Assembly: GCA_025055015.1 (NCBI GenBank)
Contig: JANWYQ010000055.1
Coordinates: 41,371-105,370, forward strand
Direction of reading: 5' to 3'
DNA length: 64,000 nucleotides
From: Caldilineales bacterium
GTDB lineage: Bacteria; Chloroflexota; Anaerolineae; JAAEKA01
A program made the translations under genes and the position numbers. Positions 8,212-53,259 of this stretch are shown piece by piece (within the stretch, counting starts at the first letter, position 1; every line of letters starts with the position of its first letter). The notes beneath the pieces were generated by a model. The model had not been told where the DNA came from. It saw nothing but the letters and a program-made list of their open reading frames with translations, and ran no database searches.

Positions 8212-9267
8212 ATGCCGACTACCTCTCCACCCCAACACGAACTCACTACTCCCTCTCCTCTCCTCGATCCCACCGGCCGGCTCGTGCAGGTGGGTTGGGC
8301 CAGGGCGCCGTTGCTGGACTGCAACTTGGAACAGGTCCGCTTCTACCCGCGGTTGTTTCGCTTCTTACAGCGTTTTCGTATCAAGCGCTGGGACTACTAC
8401 GGCGTCACCACTCCGGAGCGCTTCTTCTCCGCAACCCTGGCCGACTTGGGCTACGCCGGACAGGCGTTCGTCTACACTGTGGACTTCACCACCGGCGCCT
8501 ACCACGAGGAGACCATCACCCTTCCCCTGGGACGGGGGATTGTCCTGCCGCGCAACAGCACGGCCGGCGACAGTTACTTCTCCGACGGCAAAACGGCGCT
8601 CCGCTTCGAGGTGCGAGAGGATGAGCGTCGCCTGAGCGTGACCTGGCCCCGCTTCGGCGGCCAACCGCTTAGCGCCGAGATCGTCCTGGCCACGCCGCCT
8701 GCCCACCAGTCCACCGTGGTGGTCATCCCCATCGGACGCCGTCGCTTCTACTACAACCGCAAGATGAACTGCCTCCCGGCGCGCGGCTGGCTGCAGATCG
8801 GCTCGGAGCGCAGCGAGCTCAGTCCGGACACTTGCTTGGGCAACCTGGACTGGGGCCGAGGCGTCTGGGAGTACCGCTCTTTCTGGGTGTGGGCTAGCGC
8901 CTCCGGCTTTCTGCCCGACGGCCGCACCGTAGGGTTGAACCTGGGCTTCGGCTTTGGCGACACGTCGGCGGCCACCGAGAACACCCTGATCCTCAACGGC
9001 CGCATCCACAAGCTGGGGCAGGTGGACTTCTCCTACGACCCGGCCGATTTCCGCCGTGCGTGGCGCATGACGGCCCCGGACGGGCGGCTGGACGTGGAGT
9101 TCGTTCCCTTCGTCGAACGCGTAGCCCGCACTAACCTGCTGGTGATCACCAGCGAGGTACACCAGCTGTTCGGTCGCTACCGCGGCCGGGTCGTCGCCGA
9201 CGACGGAGAGGTCATCCCCCTCATGGGCCTCATCGGCTTCGCCGAGGAGCATCGCGCGCGCTGGTGA
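8212..9267 (+). CDS. conserved hypothetical protein (possibly DUF2804-like), 351 aa
   Basis: Clean ORF with no TM or catalytic motif recognised. The family assignment is from memory of a KRWDYYGV-type motif and is weak. Confidence 0.45.
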   Translation: MPTTSPPQHELTTPSPLLDPTGRLVQVGWARAPLLDCNLEQVRFYPRLFRFLQRFRIKRWDYYGVTTPERFFSATLADLGYAGQAFVYTVDFTTGAYHEETITLPLGRGIVLPRNSTAGDSYFSDGKTALRFEVREDERRLSVTWPRFGGQPLSAEIVLATPPAHQSTVVVIPIGRRRFYYNRKMNCLPARGWLQIGSERSELSPDTCLGNLDWGRGVWEYRSFWVWASASGFLPDGRTVGLNLGFGFGDTSAATENTLILNGRIHKLGQVDFSYDPADFRRAWRMTAPDGRLDVEFVPFVERVARTNLLVITSEVHQLFGRYRGRVVADDGEVIPLMGLIGFAEEHRARW

Positions 9268-9455
9268 CGAGGGGTGCTGGGCATGTGCGCGCTCGAGGAA
9301 CCACGTGGCGGCTACCGTATGCGTGAACGATGGCCACGCATCCCTGAGCAGCATCTGAAGAAGGTCGGGTCGGGGTTCGAACCGGACGCTAGAGCCAGGC
9401 GGGACGCCCTCTTGATCCGGGGGATGAGGGCACCTTCTCCGGCCGCTTCAGAATC

Positions 9456-9483
9456 TTGACAAATCGGATGTCCAGAATAGAAT
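9456..9483 (+). promoter_or_regulatory. sigma70-like promoter of the lysine cluster (TTGACA-16 nt-TAGAAT)
   Basis: TTGACA at 9456-9461 and TAGAAT at 9478-9483, with a 16-nt spacer, about 30 nt upstream of the leader ORF. Confidence 0.55.
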
Positions 9484-9514
9484 GCAGGCCACGTTGCAGT
9501 GTAGACGTTTGCCT

Positions 9515-9595
9515 ATGACCTGCGCTTCCATCTTCGCCAAGTCCAAGTCCAAGCAGCCGTCCCAGGCCTGGGATGGCTTGTTGAGCTTGGGCTGA
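9515..9595 (+). CDS. lysine-operon leader peptide (MTCASIFAKSKSKQPSQAWDGLLSLG, three AAG Lys codons)
   Basis: ATG at 9515 and TGA at 9593-9595. Lys codons in the KSKSK stretch. The ORF lies between the promoter and an intrinsic terminator upstream of lysW. Thermus thermophilus is known to regulate its AAA lysine cluster through a Lys-rich leader peptide. Confidence 0.6.
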   Translation: MTCASIFAKSKSKQPSQAWDGLLSLG

Positions 9596-9620
9596 GCGCG
9601 GTCCACCCACCCAAGTTTGC

Positions 9621-9662
9621 AAGTCCTGCCAGGCCTGGCGCCTCGGCAGGACTTTTTGTTTG
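9621..9662 (+). terminator. intrinsic terminator / attenuator hairpin (GTCCTGCC-loop-GGCAGGAC followed by TTTTTGTTT)
   Basis: Perfect 8-bp GC-rich stem at 9623-9630 pairing with 9645-9652, followed by a T-run. The hairpin lies 80 nt upstream of the lysW ATG. Confidence 0.7.
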
Positions 9663-9743
9663 CCTATACGGCGGCAATGCGGCCCCTCCTCGCCCGCCCG
9701 GCGAGCCAGGGCCGCTTTTTTATCCCCCACCCAGGAGTGCATC

Positions 9744-9914
9744 ATGACCTACCAAACCAACTGTCCCGAGTGCGACGCCGTCCTTACCCTCACCGACCCC
9801 CTCCAGGGCGAAATCGTGCCCTGCCCCGACTGCGGTGTGGAGCTGGAGGTGGTGTCCGTAAGCCCGCTGACCCTGGACCTGGCGCCCGAGGAAGAGGAGG
9901 ACTGGGGCGAATGA
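9744..9914 (+). CDS. lysW: alpha-aminoadipate/glutamate carrier protein LysW (56 aa)
   Basis: N-terminal Zn-ribbon CPECDA..CPDCG. Acidic C-terminal tail EEEEDWGE characteristic of LysW. AGGAG RBS. Stop overlaps the lysX start (ATGA). Confidence 0.9.
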
Positions 9915-10777
9915 CGCGCGTGGCCGTCCTCGTTTCCCGCATACGCGTCGAGGAGAAGCTGCTGCTGGCCAGCCTGGAGGCGGCCGGCGCGCAGGTGCAG
10001 GTGGTCAACGACGGGGAGCTGGTCTTCCGCCTGGGTGACGGCGTCACCCGGCTGGAGGCTGACGTGGCGCTGGAGCGCTCGGTGAGCACGGCGCGTGGGC
10101 TCTACGCTCTGCGCCTGCTGGAGGCCGCGGGCATGCCCACGGTCAACACCTACACGGTGGCCTCCACCTGCGCGGACAAGCTGCTGACCACCGCTGCGCT
10201 GACCGAGGCCGGCATACCCCAGCCGCAGGCGCGCGTCGCCTTCACGCCGGAGGCCGCTCTCCAAGCCATCGAGGAGCTGGGCTATCCGGTGGTGCTCAAG
10301 CCGGTGGTGGGCTCGTGGGGCCGGCTGCTCGCCCGGGTCAACGACCGAGACGCGGCCGAGGCGATCCTGGAGCATAAGGAGGTGCTGGGCTCCTACCTGC
10401 ACAGCATCGTCTACGTGCAGGAGTACATCGCCAAGCCGGGCCGCGACGTCCGCGCCTTCGTGGTGGGCGACGAGACTGTGGCGGCCATCTACCGTCGCTC
10501 CGACCACTGGATCACCAACACCGCTCGCGGGGGCCAGGCCGGCAACTGCCCGGTGACGCCGGAGATCAACGACCTGTGCCGCCGCGCCGCGCGTGCGGTG
10601 GGCGCAGGCGAAGCCGGCGCAGTGCTGGCCGTTGACCTGCTGGAGGACCCCGACCGCGGGCTGCTGGTCAACGAGGTTAACCACACCATGGAGTTCCGCA
10701 ACAGCATCGAGCCCACCGGCGTGGACATTCCGGGGCTGGTGGCGAGGTATGTGCTGGCGCGGGCGGGTGGCCGCTGA
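9911..10777 (+). CDS. lysX: LysX, alpha-aminoadipate--LysW ligase (RimK-type ATP-grasp)
   Basis: ATP-grasp fold motifs. Immediately follows lysW with an ATGA overlap. Confidence 0.85.
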
Positions 10778-10892
10778 TCGGTAACCGATGACCGGTGACC
10801 GGTAGCTCGTAAGCCGCAACCCTCTGCGCGAAGAGACGACCGCTCACTGATCACCGATTACCGCTCACTGATCACCGTTCACCGTTCACCGA
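10776..10892. repeat. heptanucleotide tandem repeat array (GGTAACC/GGTGACC units), then reverse-complement array (CTGATCA/CCGTTCA units) giving an imperfect inverted repeat
   Basis: 7-nt periodicity visible in cggtaac cgatgac cggtgac cggtagc ... ccgctca ctgatca ccgatta ccgctca ctgatca ccgttca ccgttca. Located in the lysX-lysY intergenic region. Confidence 0.8.
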
Positions 10893-10899
10893 GACAACC

Positions 10900-11973
10900 A
10901 TGACCGTACGAGCATCCATCGTCGGCGCGTCGGGCTACGGCGGCGGCGAGCTGCTGCGGCTGCTGCTGGCCCACCCCCACGTGGAGGTCGCCCAGGTGAC
11001 CTCGGAGTCCAACGCCGGCAACTACGTGCACAGCGTGCACCCCAACCTGCGGCCCGGCCTGGCCATGCGGCGGTATGCGGGCTACGCCAGCGGCCAGGGG
11101 CTGCGCTTCACCAGCATCGCCGAGCTGCAGCCGTGCGACGTGCTCTTCCTGGCCCTGCCCCACGGCGAGGCGCAGCGTCGCATCGAGCACTTCGCCGGCC
11201 TAGCCGAGCGCATCGTGGACCTGTCGGCCGACTTCCGGCTGCGGGACCCGGCCGCCTACCGCCAGCGCTACGGCGAGCCCCACCTTGCGCCGGCTTGGCT
11301 GGAGCGCTTCGTCTACGGCCTGCCGGAGCTGAACCGGGAGGCCATCCGCCAAACCCGCTACTGCAGCGGCGTGGGCTGCAACGCCACGGCCTCCATCCTG
11401 GCCCTGCTGCCGCTGCAGCGGGCCGGCCTCCTGCGCGCGGACCGGCCCATCGTGGTGGACGTCAAGGCCGGCTCCTCCGAGGGCGGCGCATCGCCCAGCC
11501 TGGCCTCGCACCACCCGGAGCGCAGCGGCGCAGTGCGCTCCTTTGCGCCCACCGGCCACCGCCACGAGGCCGAGGTGATCCAGGCCCTGGGCCGGGAGGA
11601 CATCTACCTCTCGGTGACGTCCATCGAGCTGGTGCGCGGGGTGTTAGCCACGGCCCATTGCTGGGTGGAGCCTGGGCTGACCGACAAGGACCTGTGGCGC
11701 GCCTACCGCGCCGCCTACGGCCAGGAACCCTTCGTGCGCATCGTGCACGAGCGGACCGGCGTCTATCGCCATCCGGAGCCCAAGCTGCTGGCCGGCACCA
11801 ACCTGGCCGACGTCGGCTGGGACCTGGACCCGGCCACCGGCCGGCTGGTGGCCCTGGCCGCGATTGACAACCTGGGCAAGGGCGCAGCCGGCAGCGCCGT
11901 GCAGTGCATGAACCTGATGCTCGGCCTCGACGAGACGGCTGGGCTGGAGTTTGTCGGGTTACATCCGGTGTGA
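10900..11973 (+). CDS. lysY: LysY / ArgC-type N-acyl-gamma-aminoadipyl(glutamyl)-phosphate reductase
   Basis: N-terminal Rossmann motif VGASGYGGGELLRLL. Catalytic Cys region SGVGCNATA. Length 357 aa. Confidence 0.85.
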   Translation: MTVRASIVGASGYGGGELLRLLLAHPHVEVAQVTSESNAGNYVHSVHPNLRPGLAMRRYAGYASGQGLRFTSIAELQPCDVLFLALPHGEAQRRIEHFAGLAERIVDLSADFRLRDPAAYRQRYGEPHLAPAWLERFVYGLPELNREAIRQTRYCSGVGCNATASILALLPLQRAGLLRADRPIVVDVKAGSSEGGASPSLASHHPERSGAVRSFAPTGHRHEAEVIQALGREDIYLSVTSIELVRGVLATAHCWVEPGLTDKDLWRAYRAAYGQEPFVRIVHERTGVYRHPEPKLLAGTNLADVGWDLDPATGRLVALAAIDNLGKGAAGSAVQCMNLMLGLDETAGLEFVGLHPV

Positions 11974-12055
11974 TCAGTAACCGGTGAACGGTAACCGGTA
12001 AGCAGTGACCGGACTGCCAACCACCGTTTGCCGTTTACCGATCACCGTTTATCGG
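11972..12055. repeat. heptanucleotide tandem repeat array (GAACGGT/AACCGGT forward, then CACCGTT/TGCCGTT reverse orientation)
   Basis: tgatcagtaaccggtgaacggtaaccggtaagcagtgacc...ccaccgtttgccgtttaccgatcaccgtttatcgg. Same unit family as 10776-10892 and 52779-52880. Located in the lysY-lysZ spacer. Confidence 0.8.
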
Positions 12056-12067
12056 CATGGAGTAGAC

Positions 12068-12883
12068 ATGAACCCACTCGTCATCAAGGCCGGCGGCGGC
12101 GCGGGCGTGGACGTGGACGCGATCTGCCGGGACGTGGCAGCGCTGGCAGCGGCCGGGCAGCCGCTGGTGCTGGTGCACGGCACGTCGGCCGCCGCGGACG
12201 CGCTGGCGCAGCGAGCCGGCGTGCCTGTGCGCACCCTGACCTCCCCCTCCGGCCACGTCAGCCGGTACACCGACCCGGAAACGCTGGAGATCTACGTGGC
12301 CGCAGCGGCCGGCCAGGTGAACAAGCGCATCGTGGCCACCCTGCAGGGGCTGGGCTGCAACGCGGTGGGCCTGTCGGGCGTGGACGGCCGCCTGCTGCTG
12401 GCCGAGCGCAAGGACGCCGTGCGCGCGGTGGAGGCCGGCCGGCAGCGCATCGTGCGGGACGACTACACCGGCCGGCTGGTGTCGGTCAACGCGGACCTGC
12501 TGCGGCTGCTGCTGGCCGCGGGCTACACGCCGGTGGTCGCGCCCCTGGCTTTGGGCACGCAGGCTGAGCGGCTCAACGTGGACGGCGACCGTGCGGCGGC
12601 GCTGGTGGCCGTGGGCCTGGCGGCCGCCAAGCTGGTCATTCTCACCAACGTGCCAGGCCTGCTGGCCAGCTTTCCCGACGAGGCCAGCCTGGTGCGCCAT
12701 GTGCCGGCCGACCGTCTGGACTGGGCCGAGGGCCTGGCCCAAGGGCGCATGAAGAAGAAGGTGCTGGCCGCGCGCGAGGCCCTGGCCGGCGGCGTCCCCA
12801 CCGTCATCCTGGCCGACTCGCGCGTGCCTCAGCCGGTGCAGGCGGCGCTGGCGGGCAGCGGGACGTGGATCGGTGAACGGTAA
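12068..12883 (+). CDS. lysZ: LysZ / ArgB-type amino-acid kinase
   Basis: Begins MNPLVIKAGGGAG (amino-acid kinase family N-terminus). Confidence 0.8.
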   Translation: MNPLVIKAGGGAGVDVDAICRDVAALAAAGQPLVLVHGTSAAADALAQRAGVPVRTLTSPSGHVSRYTDPETLEIYVAAAAGQVNKRIVATLQGLGCNAVGLSGVDGRLLLAERKDAVRAVEAGRQRIVRDDYTGRLVSVNADLLRLLLAAGYTPVVAPLALGTQAERLNVDGDRAAALVAVGLAAAKLVILTNVPGLLASFPDEASLVRHVPADRLDWAEGLAQGRMKKKVLAAREALAGGVPTVILADSRVPQPVQAALAGSGTWIGER

Positions 12884-14065
12884 ATGGACCCCACAGCCAT
12901 CATATCCATCGAGTCCGCCCACACCTCCGGCGTTTACCCGAAGCGGCCGGTGGCCATCGTGCGCGGGCAGGGCGCGCGGGTGTGGGACGCCGAGGGCAAC
13001 GAGTACGTTGACTGCGTGGGCGGCCAGGGCGCAGCCAACCTGGGCCACGCCCACCCGGCCATCGTGGCCGCCGTCACCCAGCAGGCCGCGCAGCTCATCT
13101 CCTGCCCGGAGATCTTCCACAACGACCGCCGGGCGGAGCTGTTGGCAGCCCTGGCCCAGGCCGCGCCGGCCGGCCTGCAGCGAGCCTTCCTGTGCAACTC
13201 CGGCGCCGAGGCGGTGGAGGCGGCCATCAAGTTCGCCTGGCTGAGCACCGGCCGTCGGCAGATCGTAGCCTGTCAACGGGGCTTCCACGGCCGCACCCTG
13301 GGCGCACTGTCTGCCACCTGGGAGCCCAAGTACCGCGAGCCTTTCGAGCCGCTGGTGCCCGGCTTTCGCCACGTGCCCTACAACGACGTGGACGCGCTGG
13401 AGCAGGCCGTGGACGACCAGACCGCTGCGGTGCTGCTGGAGGTGGTGCAGGGCGAGGGCGGGGTGCGGCCCGGCGATCCGGCCTTCCTGCTGGCCGCGCA
13501 GCGCCTCTGCCGCGAGCGGGGCGCGCTGCTGATCGTGGACGAGGTGCAGACCGGCTACGGTCGCACCGGTCGTCTCTTCGCCTGTCAGCACTACGGCCTG
13601 GAGCCCGACCTGATGCCCATCGCCAAGTCCATGGCCGGCGGCCTGCCCATGGGCGCGTGTCTGATCGGACCTCGGGTGGGCGAGCTGGCCAAGCTGACCC
13701 ACGGCAGCACCTTCGGCGGCAACCCATTGGCCTGTGCAGCGGCCCTGGCTACGCTGCACGTCATGGCTGCCGAGGACCTGCCCGGCCGGGCAGCCCGCCT
13801 GGGCGCCTGGCTGCTGGAGCGCCTGCGGGCCATCCGCTCGCCGCTGATCCGCGAGGTGCGCGGCCTGGGCCTGCTGGTGGGCATCGAGCTCAAGGTCAAG
13901 GTCACGCCGATTTTGCAGCGGCTGCAGGCGCGCGGCGTCCTGGCTCTGCCCGCCGGCGCCGCCGTTCTCCGCCTCCTGCCGCCCTTGGTCATCGAGCAGG
14001 AGGACCTGGAGCGCGTGGCGCAGGCGATTGAGGCGGAGCTGGGACGAGGCACGAGCAACGAGTAA
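12884..14065 (+). CDS. lysJ: LysJ / ArgD-type class-III aminotransferase (acetylornithine/LysW-gamma-lysine aminotransferase)
   Basis: PLP aminotransferase class III motifs: LIVDEVQTGYGRTG and the PLP-lysine region PDLMPIAKSMAGG. Stop/start overlap with lysZ (TAAATG). Confidence 0.85.
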   Translation: MDPTAIISIESAHTSGVYPKRPVAIVRGQGARVWDAEGNEYVDCVGGQGAANLGHAHPAIVAAVTQQAAQLISCPEIFHNDRRAELLAALAQAAPAGLQRAFLCNSGAEAVEAAIKFAWLSTGRRQIVACQRGFHGRTLGALSATWEPKYREPFEPLVPGFRHVPYNDVDALEQAVDDQTAAVLLEVVQGEGGVRPGDPAFLLAAQRLCRERGALLIVDEVQTGYGRTGRLFACQHYGLEPDLMPIAKSMAGGLPMGACLIGPRVGELAKLTHGSTFGGNPLACAAALATLHVMAAEDLPGRAARLGAWLLERLRAIRSPLIREVRGLGLLVGIELKVKVTPILQRLQARGVLALPAGAAVLRLLPPLVIEQEDLERVAQAIEAELGRGTSNE

Positions 14066-14255
14066 CGCTTGCATCTGCGCTGCGCTCTGTCGCCAGTGCA
14101 GATGTACATAACCCGGATCCGTCCCACCACTTCCGGTGACGCATCACCTACGACGCACCACACGGTCCCGAACACTGGGCAACCCGGAGACGGCCACCAC
14201 CACTCCGGCTGCGCGGGACGCCTCACTCGTTACGCATCAGTTCCCGGAGCCCCCT

Positions 14256-15407
14256 ATGTCCCTGGAAAACTACAACATCATCGAGTCGACCCTCCGCGAG
14301 GGTGAACAGTTCGTCGGCGCGCAGTTCACGCGCGAGCAGAAGATCCGCATTGCCCAGGCGCTGGACGGCCTCGGCGTGGAGTACCTGGAGCTCACGTCGC
14401 CGTTGGCCTCGCCCGGCAGCCTGGAGGACATCAAGGCCATCGTTGGCCTGGGCCTTCATGCCCGCATCCTCACCCACATCCGCTGCCACAAGGAAGACGC
14501 CAAGGTGGCGCTGGACACCGGCGTGGACGGCATTGACGTGGTGATCGGCACCTCGTCGCAGCTGCGCCAGTTCAGCCACGGCAAGAGCATTGACGAGATC
14601 ATTGACCTGGCGGCTGAGGTGTTGACCTTCATCCGCAGCCAGGCGCCGGGCATTGAGCTGCGCTTCAGCACCGAGGACTCCTTTCGCAGCGAGGAGAAGG
14701 ACCTGCTGCGAGTCTACCTGGCCGTGGACCGGCTGGGGGTGGTCAACCGCCTGGGCATCGCCGACACTGTGGGCATTGCCACGCCCAGCCAGGTGCTGCG
14801 CCTGGTGAGCACCCTGCGCCGGCTCACCACCGCCGACATCGAGTTCCACGGCCACAACGACTCCGGCTGCGCGGTGGCCAACGCCTTCGCCGCGCTGGAG
14901 GGCGGCGCGACGCATGTGGACACCAGCGTGCTGGGCATCGGCGAGCGCAACGGCATCACCCCCCTGGGCGCGTTCATCGCCCGCATGTACACCTACGACC
15001 GCGAGACGGTGAAGCGCAAATATCGTCTGGATCGCCTGCGCCGGGTGGAGCTGATGGTGGCCGAGATGGTGGGCGTGGACATCCCCTTCAACAACCCCAT
15101 CACCGGCTTCTGCGCCTTTACCCACAAGGCCGGCATCCACGCCAAGGCCATCCTCAACAAGCCGGAGACCTACGAGGCCCTGGATCCCACCGACTTCGGC
15201 CTGACCCGCTACATCTCCATCGCCCATCGCCTGACCGGCTGGAACGCGGTCAAGGCTCGCGCCGAGCAGCTCGGCCTGAGCCTCACCGACGAGCAGATCA
15301 AGTCCCTCACCCAGCACATCAAGGCCCTGGCCGACGAAAAGCCGCTAGGGCTGGACGATGTGGATGAGCTGTTGCACACGTGGGGGAATGGAGTGGGTGG
15401 TAACTGA
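14256..15407 (+). CDS. homocitrate synthase (LeuA/NifV family)
   Basis: [15 protein letters not shown] motif near the N-terminus and HxH metal site HGHNDSG. Positioned directly before homoaconitase in the lysine cluster. Confidence 0.85.
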
Positions 15408-15417
15408 GGAGTACGCC

Positions 15418-17526
15418 ATGCCTTACACCTTCGCCGAAAAAGCCTTGGCCCGCGCGGCCGGTTTGCGCAGCGCCGTGGTCGGGCAGATCGTAGACGTCAC
15501 CCCTGACGTGGCCCTCAGCCATGACAACACGGCTGCCATCGCCCGCATCTTCCGATCGCTAGGCGCAGAGCGGGTCAAACATCCGGAGCGGCTGGCCATT
15601 ACCCTGGACCACGCGGTGCCCGCGCCCACCACGCTCCACGCCACCAACCACGCGGAGGTGCGTCGCTTCGTGGCCGAGCAAGGCATCCGCCATTTCTTCG
15701 AGGCCGGCCGCGGCATCTGCCACCAGGTGCTCAGCGAGGAGGCGCTGGTGCTGCCCGGCCAGACGGTCCTGGGCGCGGACAGCCACACCACGCACTTCGG
15801 CTGGCTGGGCGCCTTCGGCGCGGGCATCGGCCGCAGCGAGATGGCAGCCATCTGGGCCACCGGCCAGCTCTGGCTGCGGGTGCCGGAGACCATCCGCGTT
15901 GACCTGGTGGGTGAGCTGCCGCCGGGCGTCACCGCCAAGGACCTGAGCCTGGTGGTGTTGCAGATGCTGGGCGAGGAGGCCGGCATCTACCGCGCCTTGG
16001 AGTTCGGCGGGCCCGGCCTGGCCACCCTAAGCCTGGAGAGCCGCATGGTGATCCCCAACATGATGGCCGAGGCTGGGGCGAAGAGCGCGTACCTGCCGCC
16101 GGACGAGGCGGTGTTTCGGTGGTTGGCGGAGCGGCTGGTGCGGAGGCGGGAGGGGAAAAGGAGGGAAAGGAGGGAAAGGAGGGAGCTGGGGGAGCTAGGG
16201 GAACCAGAGGAACTGGGGGAGGTGGTGGAGCGGCTGAGGGCGATGGCGCTGTACCCTGACCCGGACGCGACCTACGTGGCGCGCTACGAGGTGAACCTGT
16301 CGGCCCTGGAGCCGGTGGTGGCGTGTCCCCATCATCCGGCCAACGTGGCGCCGCTGTCGCAGGTGGCAGGGACGCGGGTGGACCAGGCCTTCCTGGGCAC
16401 CTGCACCAACGGCCGGCTGGAGGACCTGGCCGAGGCTGCGGCGGTGCTGCGGGCCCCCGACGGCCGGGTGCGGCGGGTGGCGCCCGGCACGCGGCTGCTG
16501 GTGATCCCCGCCTCCAGCGAAGTGCTTCAGGCTGCGCTGGCCGCGGGCTACCTCGAGACCTTCCTGCAGGCCGGAGCCATGATCGGCACCCCCGGCTGCG
16601 GTCCCTGCATGGGCAACCACATGGGCATCCCCGCGCCGGGCGAGGTGACTATTAGCAGCGCCACCCGCAACTGCCGCGGGCGCATGGGCACGGCCGAGAG
16701 CGAGGTCTACCTGGCCAGCCCGGCAGTGGTGGCGGCGTCGGCGGTCTTGGGCCGTATTGCGGATCCGCGGGAGGTCATCGGAGACGGGAAGGAGGAGAGG
16801 AAGGAGCGTAGGGCGAGGAGGGACAAGGCGGAGACGCAGAGGTGGTGGAGGGTTGTGCACGAGATACCGGAGGTGGCAGCAGTCCCGCAGGCGGCGCTCG
16901 CCGGAGGTCGGCCGGCAGGCAGGCGGCAGGCAGCAGACGGTCCGGGGTTAGCGGATCCCGCTGACGGGGCCGGCGCTCCACCCCACCACCCAACCAATTT
17001 ACCGATCCACCAACCTACCGACCACCTCTCCCCCTCTGCCTTCTCCGGCCGCGCCTGGAAGTACGGCGACAACGTCAATACCGACGTGATCTTCCCCGGC
17101 AAGTACACCTACACCCTGCGCGAGCCCAGCGAGTGGGCGAAGCACGCGCTGGAGGACCTAGACCCGACCTTTGCGGCCAACGTGCAGCCTGGCGATATCA
17201 TCGTGGCCGGCCGCAACTGGGGCTGTGGCTCCAGCCGTGAGCAGGCCGTGGGCGCGCTCAAGGCTGCCGGCGTGCGCGCCATCGTGGCCGCCAGCTTTGC
17301 CCGCATCTACTTCCGCAACGCGGTCAACAACGGCATCCTGCCCATCGTCTGCCCCGAGGCCGTGGCCGCCATCCAGCCCGGCGAGACCGTCACCGTGGAC
17401 CCGGAGCGCTGCATCGTGCGCTGCGCAGCCGGCGACTTCCCCTTCCCTCCCCTGTCCGACTCGCTGAGAGCCATCGTGGCGGCGGGGGGATTGGTGGAGA
17501 TGTTGAGAGCAACACGTAATGCGTAA
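15418..17526 (+). CDS. homoaconitase with fused large (LeuC-like) and small (LeuD-like) subunits joined by low-complexity linkers
   Basis: Aconitase-family Fe-S ligand motifs GADSHT, GTCTNGR and GCGPCMG in the first 480 aa. A LeuD-like swivel domain at the C-terminus ([16 protein letters not shown]...[14 protein letters not shown]). Two purine-rich insert-encoded linkers (nt 16141-16235 and 16780-17040). No stop codon between the two domains. Confidence 0.8.
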
Positions 17527-17989: not shown

Positions 17990-18234
17990 GGGAGGTGATG
18001 AATTGGTCACGGCGCACTCCGTAGGCACAGAAGTTTGTGCTTTCATTCTAAACACATCGAGGAGAGTGTCAAGAGCCGATAGCTGTAACACACGTAACGC
18101 GTAGTGTGTAATCCAAAGCTTGTGCAAGGTGTCTGCTCACTTCCGCCCAAGAGTTACGTCTTACCTGTGGCGCACGACTCGTTATGCCCCCGACAAGTCC
18201 TGCCACACTGCACTTGTCCCACGAGGAACCTCCC

Positions 18235-19287
18235 ATGCCCACTATCTGTCTCATCCCCGGCGACGGCGTCGGCCAGGAGGTGATCCCGGCCGCAGCGCGA
18301 GTGTTGACGACGGTCGCGCCTGACTTGGCCTTTGTGGAGGCCGAGGCCGGCTGGGCGTGCTTCCTGCGCTGCGGCACGGCCCTGCCCGACGAGACCCTGG
18401 CCGCCGTAGCCGCTGCGGACGCCACCCTCTTCGGCGCCACCCAGTCGCCTAGCACGCCGGTGGAGGGCTACCGCAGCCCCATCCTGGCCCTGCGCCAGCA
18501 CTTCGACCTCTACGCTAACTTGCGGCCTACCTGGACGATGCTGCCCGGCCAACCGGCTCTTGACCTCCTCCTCGTCCGCGAGAACACCGAGTGTCTCTAC
18601 GTCGGCCGCGAGCGCCGGGAGGGCGATGCGGCCATCGCCGAGCGCGTCATCACCCGCCGCGCCAGCCAACGCATTGCCCACGTCGCCTTCCAGCACGCGC
18701 GGCGGCGCGCGCAACAACCCTCCGCCTCATTGGCCACTGACAGTTTACCATTGACCATTGGCCAGTCCGCCGTCACCGTCGTTCACAAAGCTAACGTCCT
18801 CAAGCTCACCGACGGCCTGTTCCGAGAGGCGTGCCTGGAGGTGGCTCAAGCGTACCCCGACGTGCGGGTCAACGAGATGCTGGTGGACGCGGCCGCCATG
18901 TGGCTGGTGAAGAACCCCGGCCGCTTCGACGTGATCGTCACCACCAACCTTTTCGGCGACATCCTCTCCGACCTGGCCGCCGGGCTGGTGGGCGGGCTGG
19001 GCGTGGCGCCCTCGGCCAACGTGGGCGCGGGCCGGGTGGCCGTCTTCGAGCCGGTGCACGGCAGCGCGCCCGATATCGCCGGCCAGGGGATCGCCAACCC
19101 GGTGGGCGCCATCCTCAGCGCAGCGATGCTCCTGGACCACATCGGCCGGCCGGAGGCTGCGCGCCGGGTGCGCAGCGCTGTGGCCGAGACGCTGGCCTGT
19201 GGTACAATAACCCCCGACCTAGGCGGCGCGGCCTCCACCGACGAGGTGACGGCGGCGGTCGTCAGACACGCCAGCGCCCAGCGTTAG
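18235..19287 (+). CDS. homoisocitrate dehydrogenase (isocitrate/isopropylmalate dehydrogenase family)
   Basis: Begins [32 protein letters not shown] signature of beta-decarboxylating dehydrogenases. GAGGAA RBS. Confidence 0.85.
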
Positions 19288-25565: not shown

Positions 25566-26573
25566 CTATCGCTGAGGCTCCAGCGCTGCCGCTAAGGCCT
25601 CGTCCCAGTACAGCTGCTGGCCGTCCTGCACCAGCAGCACCCCCGCTTGGCGAGCGGCTTCGATCGCCCCTTGTGTGATCTTCTCTCCGGCTGCCGTGGG
25701 AACAGCTACCAACCCTGCCTTGCGCAGCAGCGCCGCCCGCCGCGCCGCGCGCTCGACGTCGTTGCGGTCAACCACCACCGAGGCCTCCACAGCCAGCAAG
25801 ACGGACGCGGCGTCGCCGCGCTCAGGCAGGCGTCCGCGCACGACTGCGTCCAGCAGCATAACCTCCTGCAGCTCGTCGCGGTCGAGGCGGTCTTCCAGCT
25901 CGACCTCCAGTTCCTGTAGCGAGAGCGCGCGCGTGCGACGCAGGATACGCCCGAAGTAGGCAGGTGCCTTGTCTCGGAATTGCCGCTCCAACCGCTCCCC
26001 TTGGAGAACGGCCAGGCTGATCTTCATCTCGCGCTGCTCGGCGGTCAGCTGGAGGATAGCCTCCTCGGTGCGCTTTTGGGCTTCGGCCAGCTCTTCGACG
26101 CGCTGCTCGGTGCGCTTTTGGGCTTCGGCCAGCTCTTCGACGCGCTGCTCGGTGCGCTTTTGGGCTTCGGCCAGCTCCGCTACCACCGTTTCCAGCCGCG
26201 TTAGCCGTGCCTCGCTCTGCCGTTGCGCCTCGGCCAACTCCGCTACCACCGTTTCCAGCCGTGTTAGCCGTGCCTCGCTCTGCCGTTGCGCCTCGGCCAG
26301 GTCTTCGACGCGCTGCTCGGTGCGCTTTTGGGCCTCGGCCAGGTCTTCGACGCGCTGCTCGGTGCGCTTCTGGGCTTCGGCCAGCTCTTCGACGCGCTGC
26401 TCGGTGCGCTTCTGCGCCTCGGCCAGCTCTTGGACCACTGCCCGCAGCTGGTTGAAATCCTCTCGCTGAACGGCGAACTCCGCGGCGAAGTCGCGGCGCA
26501 AGGCCTCCGCCAGCTTCAGCATGGGGACCTGGAGATCGCGCGGTAGCTCGTCAATAACTTGTAGGTACGTCAT
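25566..26573 (-). CDS. coiled-coil repeat protein (14-aa repeats [14 protein letters not shown]) with a C-terminal possible PD-(D/E)XK-like domain
   Basis: At least 8 tandem 14/21-aa repeats encoded by 42-bp tandem DNA repeats (nt approx 26030-26440). C-terminus contains D...EVMLLD...E-like acidic/hydrophobic pattern. Confidence 0.6.
26030..26440. repeat. 42-bp tandem repeat array inside the coiled-coil gene
   Basis: Unit cgctgctcggtgcgcttttgggcttcggccagctcttcgacg repeated with minor variants. Confidence 0.8.
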
Positions 26574-26634
26574 GGCGCTCTCCTAACCGCGGACATTATA
26601 CCCCACGTCGGCGTAGATCAGAAAACTACGGCCG

Positions 26635-42801: not shown

Positions 42802-43552
42802 CATGAGTGTCCGACTCAAGTCCCCCCGAGCCAGCAAGGACGCAGTAATCTACCCAGAAAGCGACGGCAAGCCCATGGCCGAGTCCGACTTGCACCGCGA
42901 GATCATGGTCTACATCATCCACCTCTTGCAGCGGTGGTTCAAGGGGCAGCAGGTGTACGTCAGCGGCAACCTGTTACTCTATTACGAGGAGGGCAACCCG
43001 CGCAAGGTGGTGGCCCCTGACTGCTTCGTGGTGTGGGGCGTGCCCCCGCACCGCCGGCCGATCTACAAGCTGTGGGAGGAGGGCAAGGCGCCGGGCGTGG
43101 TGTTCGAGGTCACCTCCAAGAGCACCCGACACGAGGACTGGGTCACCAAGATGCACCTGTACGCGCGGCTGGGCGTGCAGGAGTACTACCTTTACGACCC
43201 CACGGGCGACTACTTGCGGCCCACGCTGCAGGCGTTCGTGCTGGAGGGCAAGCACTTTGTGCCCATGCCGCCGGCCAACCGGGGGACCCAGGTGGGTGAG
43301 CTCTCCCTGGCGCCGGCTGCCGACGAGCCGCCGGAGTACGTCAGCCCGTTGCTCGGCCTGCGCCTGGCCTTGAACGAGGACGGGTGGCTGGTGTTCTACG
43401 ACGAGGCCACGGGCCAACGGCTGCTCAGCGACGAGGAGGCGCGCAGGCAGGCCGAGGAGGAGCGGGCCCGCGCAGAAGCAGCTAGATCGCAGGCCGAGCA
43501 AGAGAACGCCCGCCTGCGCGCTGAGCTGGCCCGCCTGCGCGGCGAGGCATAA
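42802..43552 (+). CDS. Uma2-family (DUF820) putative PD-(D/E)XK endonuclease with C-terminal coiled-coil tail
   Basis: Characteristic YPESDGKPMAES...E...NLLLYYEEG...PDCFVV...FEVTSKST motifs of Uma2/DUF820. Located 23 nt upstream of the PHP-UvrD gene on the same strand. Confidence 0.8.
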
Positions 43553-43575
43553 GATCGTCCCGGCGGCTTTCCCCC

Positions 43576-47388
<3,813 letters not shown>

Positions 47389-51598: not shown

Positions 51599-51931
51599 TC
51601 AGCCGTGCTCCACCGGACCTTCCGATACCCCGTCGAGGGAGGGCAGCATCCACGTGGAGCGCAGCCGACGCACGAAGCGGTCAATGTCCTCTTCGGTCGC
51701 TAGCTCCGGATCGTCTGCATCGGACCAGGCGCCGCTGGACTTTTCAAGGGCCTTGAGCGGTCGTTCCCGACGAAGCGCGCGCTCGGTTGCTTCCACGATG
51801 AAGCTGTTCCGCTCCCGCGGTGGTACAAGCGACTCCATCATCTCCAGGAGAGGCTCGGGAAACGCTACGTTGATTCTTCGTCGGCTGACCGATGGTGCTG
51901 TCATCGTTGCGCCTTCGTGTTCTTCCGTCAC
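51599..51931 (-). CDS. ribbon-helix-helix antitoxin-like protein, paralog of 17732-17989 (alternative start at 51904)
   Basis: RRINVAFPEPLLEMMESLVPPRERNSFIVEATERALRRE and a C-terminal SGAWSDADDPELA...IDRFVRRLR tail align with the first paralog. Confidence 0.6.
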   Translation of the reverse strand: MTEEHEGATMTAPSVSRRRINVAFPEPLLEMMESLVPPRERNSFIVEATERALRRERPLKALEKSSGAWSDADDPELATEEDIDRFVRRLRSTWMLPSLDGVSEGPVEHG

Positions 51932-53259
51932 CAGCTTCCCATCTTCGTCATTCGCTGCACCTCGATAGCAAACACCACGCGCGGGGCCTGCATCAGCGCC
52001 TCCACCATGGCGTCCACCCGTTCGGCCGGCACGTAGCGCGCCACGATGCGCTGTGTGATAGGCCGCGCCGCCTCCCCCTCGGCCACCACGTGGGCCAGGC
52101 CGCGGCCCGTCACCCCGCGGTAGGGCGGCTGGTCGCGGTCAATCGCAAACCCGACCTTGGGGTGGCCGCGCATGTTGCGTGCCTTGACCCGGTCGGCCGT
52201 GGTGCTCACCAGCAGGCGGCCCTCCTCGAACAGGTACCACACCGGCGTCACCTGGGGATAGCCGTCGCTGCCCAGGGTGCCCAGGCGCATCAGCAGGCCG
52301 GGCTCGTTCAGAAACGCCACCACGGCGTCGTCCAGGGCGATAGGGGGGTGTTCGTCGTGCATGGGAGATGTCTCCAAGGGGGCGTGAGCGGTCCCCGGGA
52401 TGGCGTCGGCCCGCTCGATGGCCAGCCACTGGGCCAGGTCCGCGGGCAGGTCCACGTCCAACCCCAGCCGCGGGGAGCGGACGATGTGGCAAGCCAGGCC
52501 GCGCTCGCGCGCCTGGGCGCAGTGGCGCTGAAAGCTGCCGGGGCCGAACGCATAGCGCAGCGCGCCCGGCGGCCGCACCAACAGCGCGTTGGTGCCCTGC
52601 TCCTGGCCGTCCGGCGCAACAACCACCGCGGCCGGCGCGTAGAGCAGCTGGCTGGCCCGCCACAGCCGCTCCACGTCGGCCAGGGTGAGCAGCGGCAGGT
52701 CGGCCGGCAGGATCAACACCGCGCTGGCTCCGCGCGCCGCAGCAAAGGCCGTGGCCTGCTCCAGCGCGGCGTTGAGGGGGTGATCGGTGGACGGTGAACC
52801 GTGAACGGTGAACGGTGGACGGTGATCAGTAATCGGTGAACGGTGAACGGTGATCGGTGGACGGTGAACGGTAAACGATGAGCCCTGATCGCTCTTCTGC
52901 GGAGCTCGCCTCCCTACCTGCGACCGCCCCGACAACGCTCTCGAGGAACCTCTGTGCCTCTGGGCCTGTGCGTTGAACGTCCGCCCCTCCAGGTGCGAAC
53001 CCGCCTCCGCAGGTACGGGCGACGCCGCCTCGGCCAGGGGCAGCAGACCGTAGGCCGCGGCCAGGTCCAGCGCCGCGGGGTCGGGGCTGACTACGATGCC
53101 GACCGCGCCAAGCCGGCTCTGCGCCTGGCGGACGACCTCCAGGCTGCTCTGTAGCAGGCGCAGGGCCAGCGCCTGGCGCTCCTCGGCCGACAGGACCTCA
53201 GCCAGCCGGCTCTTGGCCTCGGCCAGCCGCTTGACCGGGACGAGGATGTACAGCGTCAC
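51928..53259 (-). CDS. cofC: 2-phospho-L-lactate guanylyltransferase CofC fused to a C-terminal PPOX-class F420-binding split-barrel domain; carries an in-frame heptamer-repeat insertion
   Basis: GTG start overlapping the cupin stop (GTGA). LYILVPVKRLAEAKSRL and LILPADLPLL...GTNALL...FGPGSF...LDVDLPADL are CofC motifs. The heptamer-repeat-encoded HRPPITVHRSPITDHRPPFTVHGSPSTD segment lies between them. C-terminal YPQVTPVWYLFEEGRLLV...PRVVFAIEV is PPOX/F420-dependent-enzyme-like. Possible internal restart at MHDEHPP with a GGAGA RBS. Confidence 0.7.
   Translation of the reverse strand: MTLYILVPVKRLAEAKSRLAEVLSAEERQALALRLLQSSLEVVRQAQSRLGAVGIVVSPDPAALDLAAAYGLLPLAEAASPVPAEAGSHLEGRTFNAQAQRHRGSSRALSGRSQVGRRAPQKSDQGSSFTVHRPPITVHRSPITDHRPPFTVHGSPSTDHPLNAALEQATAFAAARGASAVLILPADLPLLTLADVERLWRASQLLYAPAAVVVAPDGQEQGTNALLVRPPGALRYAFGPGSFQRHCAQARERGLACHIVRSPRLGLDVDLPADLAQWLAIERADAIPGTAHAPLETSPMHDEHPPIALDDAVVAFLNEPGLLMRLGTLGSDGYPQVTPVWYLFEEGRLLVSTTADRVKARNMRGHPKVGFAIDRDQPPYRGVTGRGLAHVVAEGEAARPITQRIVARYVPAERVDAMVEALMQAPRVVFAIEVQRMTKMGSW
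52779..52880. repeat. about 14 tandem heptanucleotide units (GGTGAAC/GGTGGAC/GGTGATC) inside the cofC coding frame
   Basis: ggtggac ggtgaac cgtgaac ggtgaac ggtggac ggtgatc agtaatc ggtgaac ggtgaac ggtgatc ggtggac ggtgaac ggtaaac. Shares TGATCAGTAA.CGGTGAACGGT with the locus at 11972. Confidence 0.85.

Follow-up and report, generated by a model that had tools for sequence, protein, structure and literature searches.

Stop-anchored heptanucleotide arrays in a Caldilineales bacterium, a Chloroflexota counterpart of the cyanobacterial STRR repeats

The window analysed in this work is a stretch of 64,000 nucleotides (nt) from a Caldilineales bacterium (GenBank assembly GCA_025055015.1, contig JANWYQ010000055.1, positions 41,371 to 105,370), with a GC content of 68%. 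Three loci of this window carry arrays of heptanucleotides of the GGTGAAC family, which had been pointed out in an earlier note made from the DNA letters. Two of them are located in a LysW-type lysine operon composed of lysW, lysX, lysY, lysZ, lysJ and a homocitrate synthase gene, where locus 1 is the lysX|lysY spacer and locus 2 is the lysY|lysZ spacer, and locus 3 lies inside a cofC-PPOX fusion gene. The arrays of the operon start at the stop codon of the upstream gene and repeat this stop in register in five of five units at both loci. A single strong promoter-like site was detected 5' of lysW, so that loci 1 and 2 would lie within one polycistronic transcript; no terminator-like sites were found in the operon (9400-14300 scanned). 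The features of this region are as follows.

9456..9483, + strand: promoter-like site 5' of lysW, TTGACA-16-TAGAAT, 11 of 12 matches
9911..10777, + strand: lysX (RimK/LysX ATP-grasp), with its stop TGA (10775-10777) within the first unit of the locus 1 array
10772..10813, + strand: 5' block of locus 1, CGCTGAT CGGTAAC CGATGAC CGGTGAC CGGTAGC TCGTAAG
10814..10838, + strand: non-repeat centre of locus 1, hairpin loop region, without a conserved counterpart at the other loci
10839..10894, + strand: 3' block of locus 1, eight ACCGNTC-type units, ending 5 nt before the lysY ATG
10900..11973, + strand: lysY (LysW-aminoadipyl-phosphate reductase), stop TGA at 11971-11973
11967..12015, + strand: 5' block of locus 2, GGTGTGA TCAGTAA CCGGTGA ACGGTAA CCGGTAA GCAGTGA CCGGACT
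12023..12057, + strand: 3' block of locus 2, ACCGTTT GCCGTTT ACCGATC ACCGTTT ATCGGCA, followed by GGAG (Shine-Dalgarno-like) and ending 10 nt before the lysZ ATG at 12068
12068..12883, + strand: lysZ (amino-acid kinase), the gene 3' of locus 2

Tandem Repeats Finder reported period-7 repeats at 10766-10803, 10839-10892, 11977-12012, 12023-12051 and 52779-52881, the last of these with 14.7 copies, 79% matches and a score of 122. Runs of three GGTRNNC units were found eight times in the window, every one at loci 1-3, against 0.00 expected from 100 dinucleotide shuffles. A period-autocorrelation scan of the window detected period-7 segments only at locus 1, at locus 3 and at an unrelated array (45241-45367), and zero segments of period 5, 6 or 8. 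Furthermore, the arrays were identical in an independent assembly of the same organism (L120), which showed 12 mismatches in 16,316 nt and no indels. Hence, they are not assembly artefacts. Arrays of CATTGAC and of CCCGCTC heptamers were also present within the 64 kb, in addition to the three GGTGAAC-family loci. At all three loci the 7-bp units are contiguous and in tandem, as in STRR-type repeats, and have no spacers, unlike CRISPR arrays, which are made of repeats of 23-50 nt alternating with unique spacers of comparable length.

At loci 1 and 2, a forward block is followed by a block of reverse-complement units. The units of the 3' block of locus 1 are the complement of GGTGAAC, GGTGATC and AGTGAGC and display a 21-nt super-period (Tandem Repeats Finder period 21, 90% matches). 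Both spacers folded into imperfect hairpins of about 30 bp, with -38.4 kcal/mol (z -2.5) for lysX|lysY and -39.0 kcal/mol (z -4.5) for lysY|lysZ. Loci 2 and 3 have in common the stretch GTGATCAGTAA[C/T]CGGTGAACGGT, identical at 22 of 23 nt, and this sharing exceeds what independent slippage would produce. The earlier note was thus correct in placing heptamer arrays of one unit family at these three loci, in describing forward and then reverse-complement blocks at the first two, in arguing for a common origin of the stretch of loci 2 and 3, and in setting the arrays apart from CRISPR. It had also stated that each intergenic spacer can fold, and this held for loci 1 and 2; locus 3 turned out to be coding, of a single orientation and with no fold beyond chance.

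In the 5' block of locus 1, the triplets in the register of the lysX stop are TGA TAA TGA TGA TAG TAA, and the other six registers contain 0 stops. The first unit of locus 2 is the end of lysY itself, and its in-register triplets are TGA TAA TGA TAA TAA TGA. Such repeated stop heptamers close all three reading frames within 21 nt. For comparison, the lys operons of five closer relatives (LysY identity 81-90%) and 80 metagenome loci (58-83%) were used. Across 24 spacers, a mean of 1.5 of 5 units had the in-register stop, against 0.12 in the other registers (p = 8e-4), a test that is possibly circular, as an open reading frame (ORF) entering an array must end on an array stop. Because of this risk, the test was redone on lysY, whose product ends in GLHPV* in the window; this C-terminus, GLHP[V/I]*, is kept by the relatives whether an array follows or not. 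Of the eight stop-bearing arrays, seven were phased on the ancestral lysY stop (p = 8.5e-6).

The units also echoed the local gene end. In L123 a TAA stop is accompanied by G.GTAA. units, in L128 GCGTGA is followed by TGCGTGG, and in L130 GATTAG is followed by GATTGG. An additional set, selected solely for a (GGTGNNC)4 array, consisted of homogeneous heptamer microsatellites from many phyla among the matches listed. In this set, 13 of the 36 stop-bearing arrays among the matches listed begin where a co-directional ORF of 100 codons or more has its stop.

Locus 3 differs from the other two in that its array is coding. Its features are as follows, together with those of a second heptamer family inside a gene.

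51928..53259, - strand: cofC-PPOX fusion gene, 443 aa, host of locus 3
52779..52883, - strand: locus 3, 15 heptamer units (GGTGAAC/GGTGATC/GGTGGAC on the + strand), in frame
52779..53022, - strand: complete extra cofC-domain segment, aa 80-161, made of about 140 nt of non-repeat G-rich sequence and the array
18728..18764, + strand: CATTGAC/CATTGGC heptamer family in the homoisocitrate dehydrogenase gene (ORF 18112-19287), in frame

The minus-strand reading of locus 3 is free of stops and gives a peptide with a periodicity of 7 aa (FTVHRPP ITVHRSP ITDHRPP FTVHGSP). The encoded protein matches an NCBI protein of a 'Caldilineales bacterium' metagenome-assembled genome (MAG) with 100% identity. 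Relative to the solved structures of CofC/FbiD and to 17 related proteins of about 378 aa, it carries about 80 additional residues between two conserved blocks. AlphaFold gave a pLDDT (its per-residue confidence) of about 30 at residues 81-157 and above 85 on either side, and the insert is thus predicted to be a disordered loop. No reverse-complement block was found at locus 3, and neither the array (z +0.6) nor the complete insert (z +0.75) folded as RNA better than expected by chance. A second arm hidden within the insert was considered and rejected on this latter value. The single orientation and the lack of a hairpin are accounted for by the GGTGAAC strand, which has a TGA in every unit and is unreadable as sense.

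This strand filter was also observed in the aggregate. The 115 arrays considered comprised 65 intergenic ones and about 25 embedded in open frames. The embedded arrays had 0.013 stop triplets per nt on the sense strand and 0.033 on the antisense strand (p = 0.014), and their sense strand was mostly C-rich. Since the coding or intergenic call was made by open frame and GC3, which yields some false 'coding' calls in high-GC DNA (e.g., the L128 spacers), these figures serve as aggregate statistics only. The CATTGAC/CATTGGC array belongs to the same class as loci 1-3, with different units, and lengthens homoisocitrate dehydrogenase by 17 aa, precisely where the comparison with the Thermus thermophilus structure 3asj shows a gap; at this site L121 has a longer insert based on octamers, and L128 has another one. 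In the homoaconitase gene (ORF 15349-17526), the in-frame period-9 arrays GGAGGGAAA and GGGAGCTGG were found at 16157-16231, a site with a longer version in L121 and without the array in L127. At the cofC site, 6 units of the same family were present in the closest relative genome (GCA_034432445.1) vs 15 in the window, (TTACGAG)4 was found in L210, and a G-rich array with a 21-nt super-period in L211. In these three genes, arrays recur in relatives at the same loop.

The distribution of the arrays was similar in the sets compared, with 4 period-7 arrays in the window, 6 in the close relatives and 41 in the 80 metagenome loci, that is, 6-7 per 100 kb in each set. No period-5 or period-6 arrays were detected in the window, the close relatives or the metagenome loci, and 9-nt units were not enriched. 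Period 8 was also enriched in the metagenome set, with 3.6 arrays per 100 kb. The array density was 13-23 per 100 kb at a LysY identity of at least 64.5% and 3.4 per 100 kb below it. The 115 arrays showed 76 different consensus units, with several families within one genome, and were richer in AT than their own genomes (51% vs 65% GC). Octamer units, with no change of context or of inverted architecture, were seen in L137 (1923-2038), L140 (6556-6811), L184 (3631-3838 and 7472-7631) and L174 (9288-9683); examples are GGTAGGTT/CAATCTAC and GTTGGTTG/AACCAACC, and some of these arrays exceed 100 nt.

In most relatives lysX and lysY overlap or are at most 5 nt apart, which indicates that the long spacers are lineage-specific additions to an ancestrally tight junction. 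Where orthologous lys spacers are present, they have the same forward-then-reverse architecture built from other units, and their folds reach z values down to -10.7. The units are GGTAATG/GGTTAAT in L121, GCGTAAC/GAGTAAT in L123, GGTGCGT in both spacers of L128, GGATTAG in L143, TTGCTGA in L171 and the octamer GGTAGGTT in L137. A shortened locus 2 was retained in GCA_034432445.1, and the two L128 spacers have about 45 nt of core plus arm in common. Among relatives, the sites and the architecture thus persist, while the sequence of the units, their number and the very presence of an array turn over rapidly. The earlier note had proposed to look for arrays in the orthologous spacers as a check on random slippage: relatives do carry arrays there, but with different units, or else the genes simply overlap. 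Despite the arrays in orthologous spacers, slippage is still their most likely generator. With mainly non-coding locations and hairpins between cistrons (loci 1 and 2; 65 of the 115 arrays intergenic), the arrays constitute a class common in this Caldilineales/Anaerolineae lineage, with units of 7 nt and in some relatives 8 nt, and are the Chloroflexota counterpart of the cyanobacterial STRR repeats.

The order of the two arms was also regular, and it is a property that is unaffected by reverse-complementing. The G-rich block came first in 31 of 34 lys-spacer hairpins (p = 8e-7) and in 29 of 34 inverted pairs overall in the clade. In the (GGTGNNC)4 set, which is independent, the same order was observed in 12 of 12 inverted pairs from unrelated phyla among the matches listed. 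Divergent-gene spacers, with no ORF reading into the array, were not identified in the sample, so that for the arm order selection on ORF termination is not separable from an intrinsic mechanism. Among the genomes of that set, L020, L028, L053, L054, L065 and L071 are Gemmatimonadota/Gemmatimonadales MAGs and L048 is an Acidobacteriota MAG; their arrays are (GGTGAAC)n, (GGTGAGC)n, (GGTGGAC)n or (GGTGGCC)n, and the complementary block lies no more than 250 nt away.

Taken as a whole, these observations make it probable, in our judgement, that the arrays are STRR-like repeats seeded by duplication of a terminal stop-containing heptamer and filtered by reading-frame constraints, with the hairpins as a consequence. 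Slipped-strand mispairing would tandemly duplicate the terminal stop-containing heptamer of a gene, and this duplication would be neutral, since the copies lie beyond the stop. The array would later be remodelled by slippage, by unit mutation and by occasional copying between arrays, of which the 22 of 23 nt common to loci 2 and 3 and the core common to the two L128 spacers are evidence. Selection would act mainly as a filter, admitting no stop-bearing sense units inside genes and only in-frame inserts. The hairpins of the polycistronic lys mRNA would probably be only generic intercistronic stem-loops and not a sequence-specific signal, with a possible role in shielding the upstream segment from 3' decay or in uncoupling translation. 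The arrays look like tolerated slippage products and not like a regulatory device.

Several points weigh against this explanation. The stability of the hairpins is significant, and many lineages have them at the same junctions, so selection for structure is possible. No difference in copy number that would show the presumed slippage was found between the two strain-level assemblies (window and L120). The complementary 3' block is left unexplained as to its origin. Sequence appears to have been copied between sites as well as locally made, since loci 2 and 3, although 40 kb apart, have a stretch identical at 22 of 23 nt, and the two L128 spacers have about 45 nt in common. Moreover, the G-rich-first order also holds for the stop-free units GGTGGAC and GGTGGCC (L028, L048 and L065); stop-codon logic alone is therefore insufficient, and it explains the arm-order rule only partly. 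A bolder proposal, which we regard as doubtful and put forward tentatively, is that gene ends in Chloroflexota and other phyla are shaped by a directional mutational process not described before, in which the stop-containing terminal heptamer is iterated and the complementary block always added 3', the same process seeding the 7-aa-periodic disordered loops at fixed enzyme sites. On this proposal, the constant arm order would point to fold-back or template-switch copying of a new repeat strand and not to random inversion.

The inverted arrays could instead be selected intercistronic RNA stem-loops, like REP sequences or the hupS-hupL STRR hairpin, that stabilise the upstream mRNA, set differential lys expression or replace the translational coupling of lysX/lysY and lysY/lysZ. 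The window spacers fold well below shuffled controls, as do those of many relatives (z values as given above), the stems begin 0-6 nt past the stop codon and end before the Shine-Dalgarno-like GGAG, and the absence of a terminator-like U-tract means that the hairpins would sit inside the transcript; the same roles have been proposed for cyanobacterial STRR hairpins (PMC2670836). The hairpin is nevertheless dispensable for the operon, since most relatives, with lysX and lysY overlapping or within 5 nt, have no spacer, and the same unit family occupies a coding loop without any hairpin. Among stem mismatches, G.U was not favoured over A.C (30 vs 21, p = 0.26), contrary to what selection on the sense RNA would predict, and permuting the unit order of the 3' arm, a test for arms that mirror each other unit by unit, left the window hairpins no weaker and was not significant. 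The mismatch and permutation results being negative, the stems reflect complementarity at the level of the array. Rfam 15 gave 0 matches at gathering score in the window; when E values as high as 1 were allowed, the region 9400-12200 yielded nothing but matches to miRNA and HBV-epsilon hairpins at the level of chance. Selected stem-loops are thus considered a rather unlikely explanation.

The earlier note had offered two other possibilities, a small non-autonomous element and a protein-binding array, and neither fared well. For the loci to be copies of an element of the miniature inverted-repeat transposable element (MITE) type, with the heptamer blocks as terminal inverted repeats inserting at junctions and in genes, one would cite the inverted arms, one unit family occurring thrice within 42 kb with a 22 of 23 nt stretch in common, the alike core plus arm (about 45 nt) of the two L128 spacers, and the lineage-specific insertions at otherwise tight junctions. 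This is highly improbable, however, as pairwise alignment of the three window loci revealed heptamer-unit similarity only, with no conserved core or termini, and no target-site duplications were seen when filled and empty lysX|lysY and lysY|lysZ junctions were compared. The arms are also unequal in unit number and phased on the ancestral upstream stop, a register that a pre-formed insert would meet only 1 in 7 times, and orthologous sites carry arrays of unrelated units. A platform for a nucleic-acid-binding protein, one heptamer per monomer (e.g., cold-shock or S1-type proteins on mRNA), acting in post-transcriptional control, would suit the strict 7-nt periodicity, with 5-, 6- and 9-nt units not enriched. 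CspB has been reported on heptamer direct repeats with one protein per heptamer and weak sequence specificity, and TAACTGA repeats have been proposed as regulator sites (PMC4679880). We hold this very unlikely, because the 76 consensus units among the 115 arrays, several families of them in one genome and differing at equivalent places in relatives, speak against a sequence-specific binder; besides, the same contexts also hold octamer arrays, some of the copies are part of enzyme coding sequences, and no candidate protein is linked to the loci. Duplication of the terminal stop heptamer under a reading-frame filter hence continues to be the preferred reading.

STRR heptamer arrays have been known in cyanobacteria since about 1990, with their origin and function unexplained, and the STRR1-3 units of heterocystous cyanobacteria are CCCCAGT, TTGGTCA and CAACAGT. 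We know of no description of STRR that includes stop phasing, arm order or in-frame loop sites. The arrays described here resemble them in having 7-bp tandem units, in probably forming several dispersed families within a genome and in being mostly non-coding. They differ in their host (Caldilineales, Chloroflexota, 68% GC), in units that are different and change from genome to genome, in the octamer versions of relatives, and in the stop-codon phasing, the G-rich-arm-first order and the recurrent in-frame sites in protein loops. They do not belong to the strict STRR1-3 family, as the host is a Caldilineales MAG, the relatives are Anaerolineae or Chloroflexi, and the units are GGTGAAC/GGTGATC/GGTAACC. 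The comparison with STRR drawn in the earlier note was nonetheless the right one: tandem 7-bp STRR units form hairpins between hupS and hupL, with a function described as unknown and with transcript stability or translational coupling proposed (PMC2670836).

Heptamer direct repeats of the unit TAACTGA occur in Beggiatoaceae, some Cyanobacteria and Bacteroidetes, with one unit across taxa, mostly in 2-6 copies just 5' of start codons, and with one inverted repeat among 170 sets (MacGregor, 2015; PMC4679880). As in those repeats, the arrays of the present study are intergenic, and the upstream ORF ends inside some of them; the forward strand gives stops, the reverse one is translatable, and the copies within ORFs are in reverse. 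What sets the present arrays apart is the variety of their units, the inverted blocks and the anchoring on the stop of the upstream gene. Assignment to the TAACTGA type was therefore rejected, given the different units, the anchoring at the upstream stop and the 3' blocks that end 5 and 10 nt before the starts.

REP/BIME sequences are intergenic imperfect palindromes of enterobacteria, about 35-40 nt long, with a conserved family sequence and mobilised by RAYT transposases. The present arrays are likewise imperfect palindromes between operon genes that can form mRNA stem-loops, which in REP/BIME protect upstream segments, but they consist of tandem 7-nt units and have no conserved palindrome sequence common to the loci. 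Rickettsia palindromic elements are discrete elements of 100-150 nt with a conserved sequence that lie in frame in protein genes. The likeness to them is that repeat DNA is tolerated in frame in conserved enzymes, adding a surface segment; unlike them, the arrays vary in copy number, are read in each of the three frames and reappear, built from different units, at the same loop.

In the literature searched, no work pairing heptamer or heptanucleotide repeats with Chloroflexi terms was found, and Chloroflexi are mentioned in neither of the two reports on STRR and TAACTGA repeats cited above (PMC2670836; PMC4679880). The phenomenon is thereby extended to a high-GC Chloroflexota lineage for which no prior description was found, and three testable rules are contributed to the STRR question, namely stop-codon anchoring and phasing, the G-rich block first, and translatability on one strand only. 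Although the arrays are repeat DNA without demonstrated function, they are informative on how such arrays start and are constrained. They create hypervariable loops in CofC, homoisocitrate dehydrogenase and homoaconitase, and they turn tightly coupled junctions into structured spacers of 100 nt, with possible effects on the expression of the operon. In annotation, gene callers will place gene ends wrongly or break genes up where such arrays lie.

Additionally, some minor observations were made. In L123, LysX (9031-9960) has 309 aa vs about 288; its ORF crosses the first heptamer block and stops inside the second (array 9892-9989), which indicates that the array has lengthened the LysX C-terminus. 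In L128, the homocitrate synthase and homoaconitase genes are each called in two pieces (13376-14574, 14587-16234), and the break in homoaconitase falls at an AGGGGTC heptamer array (15299-15405); either the array changed in length and shifted the frame, or the repeat was misassembled.

The lysW leader (9490-9743) is strongly structured, with a minimum free energy of -118.6 kcal/mol (z -5.6), and had no Rfam match. It contains a short ORF (9515-9595) for the 26-aa peptide MTCASIFAKSKSKQPSQAWDGLLSLG, whose K-S-K-S-K run derives from a threefold CCAAGT repeat, and two U-tract hairpins 3' of this ORF. This leader looks like a lysine-sensing leader-peptide attenuator.

A UvrD-like helicase ORF (43525-47388, 1287 aa) has an N-terminal extension of about 620 aa with three short-period arrays (44878-44981, 45217-45367 and 46685-46755). 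Among them are CCCGCTC-type heptamers that have a super-period of 21 nt and give proline-rich, PLPAPSS-like repeats immediately ahead of the helicase domain. Finally, a 338-aa ORF on the minus strand (25566-26582) carries in-frame tandem repeats at 26064-26435, with periods of 42 and 63 nt and up to 94% identity.

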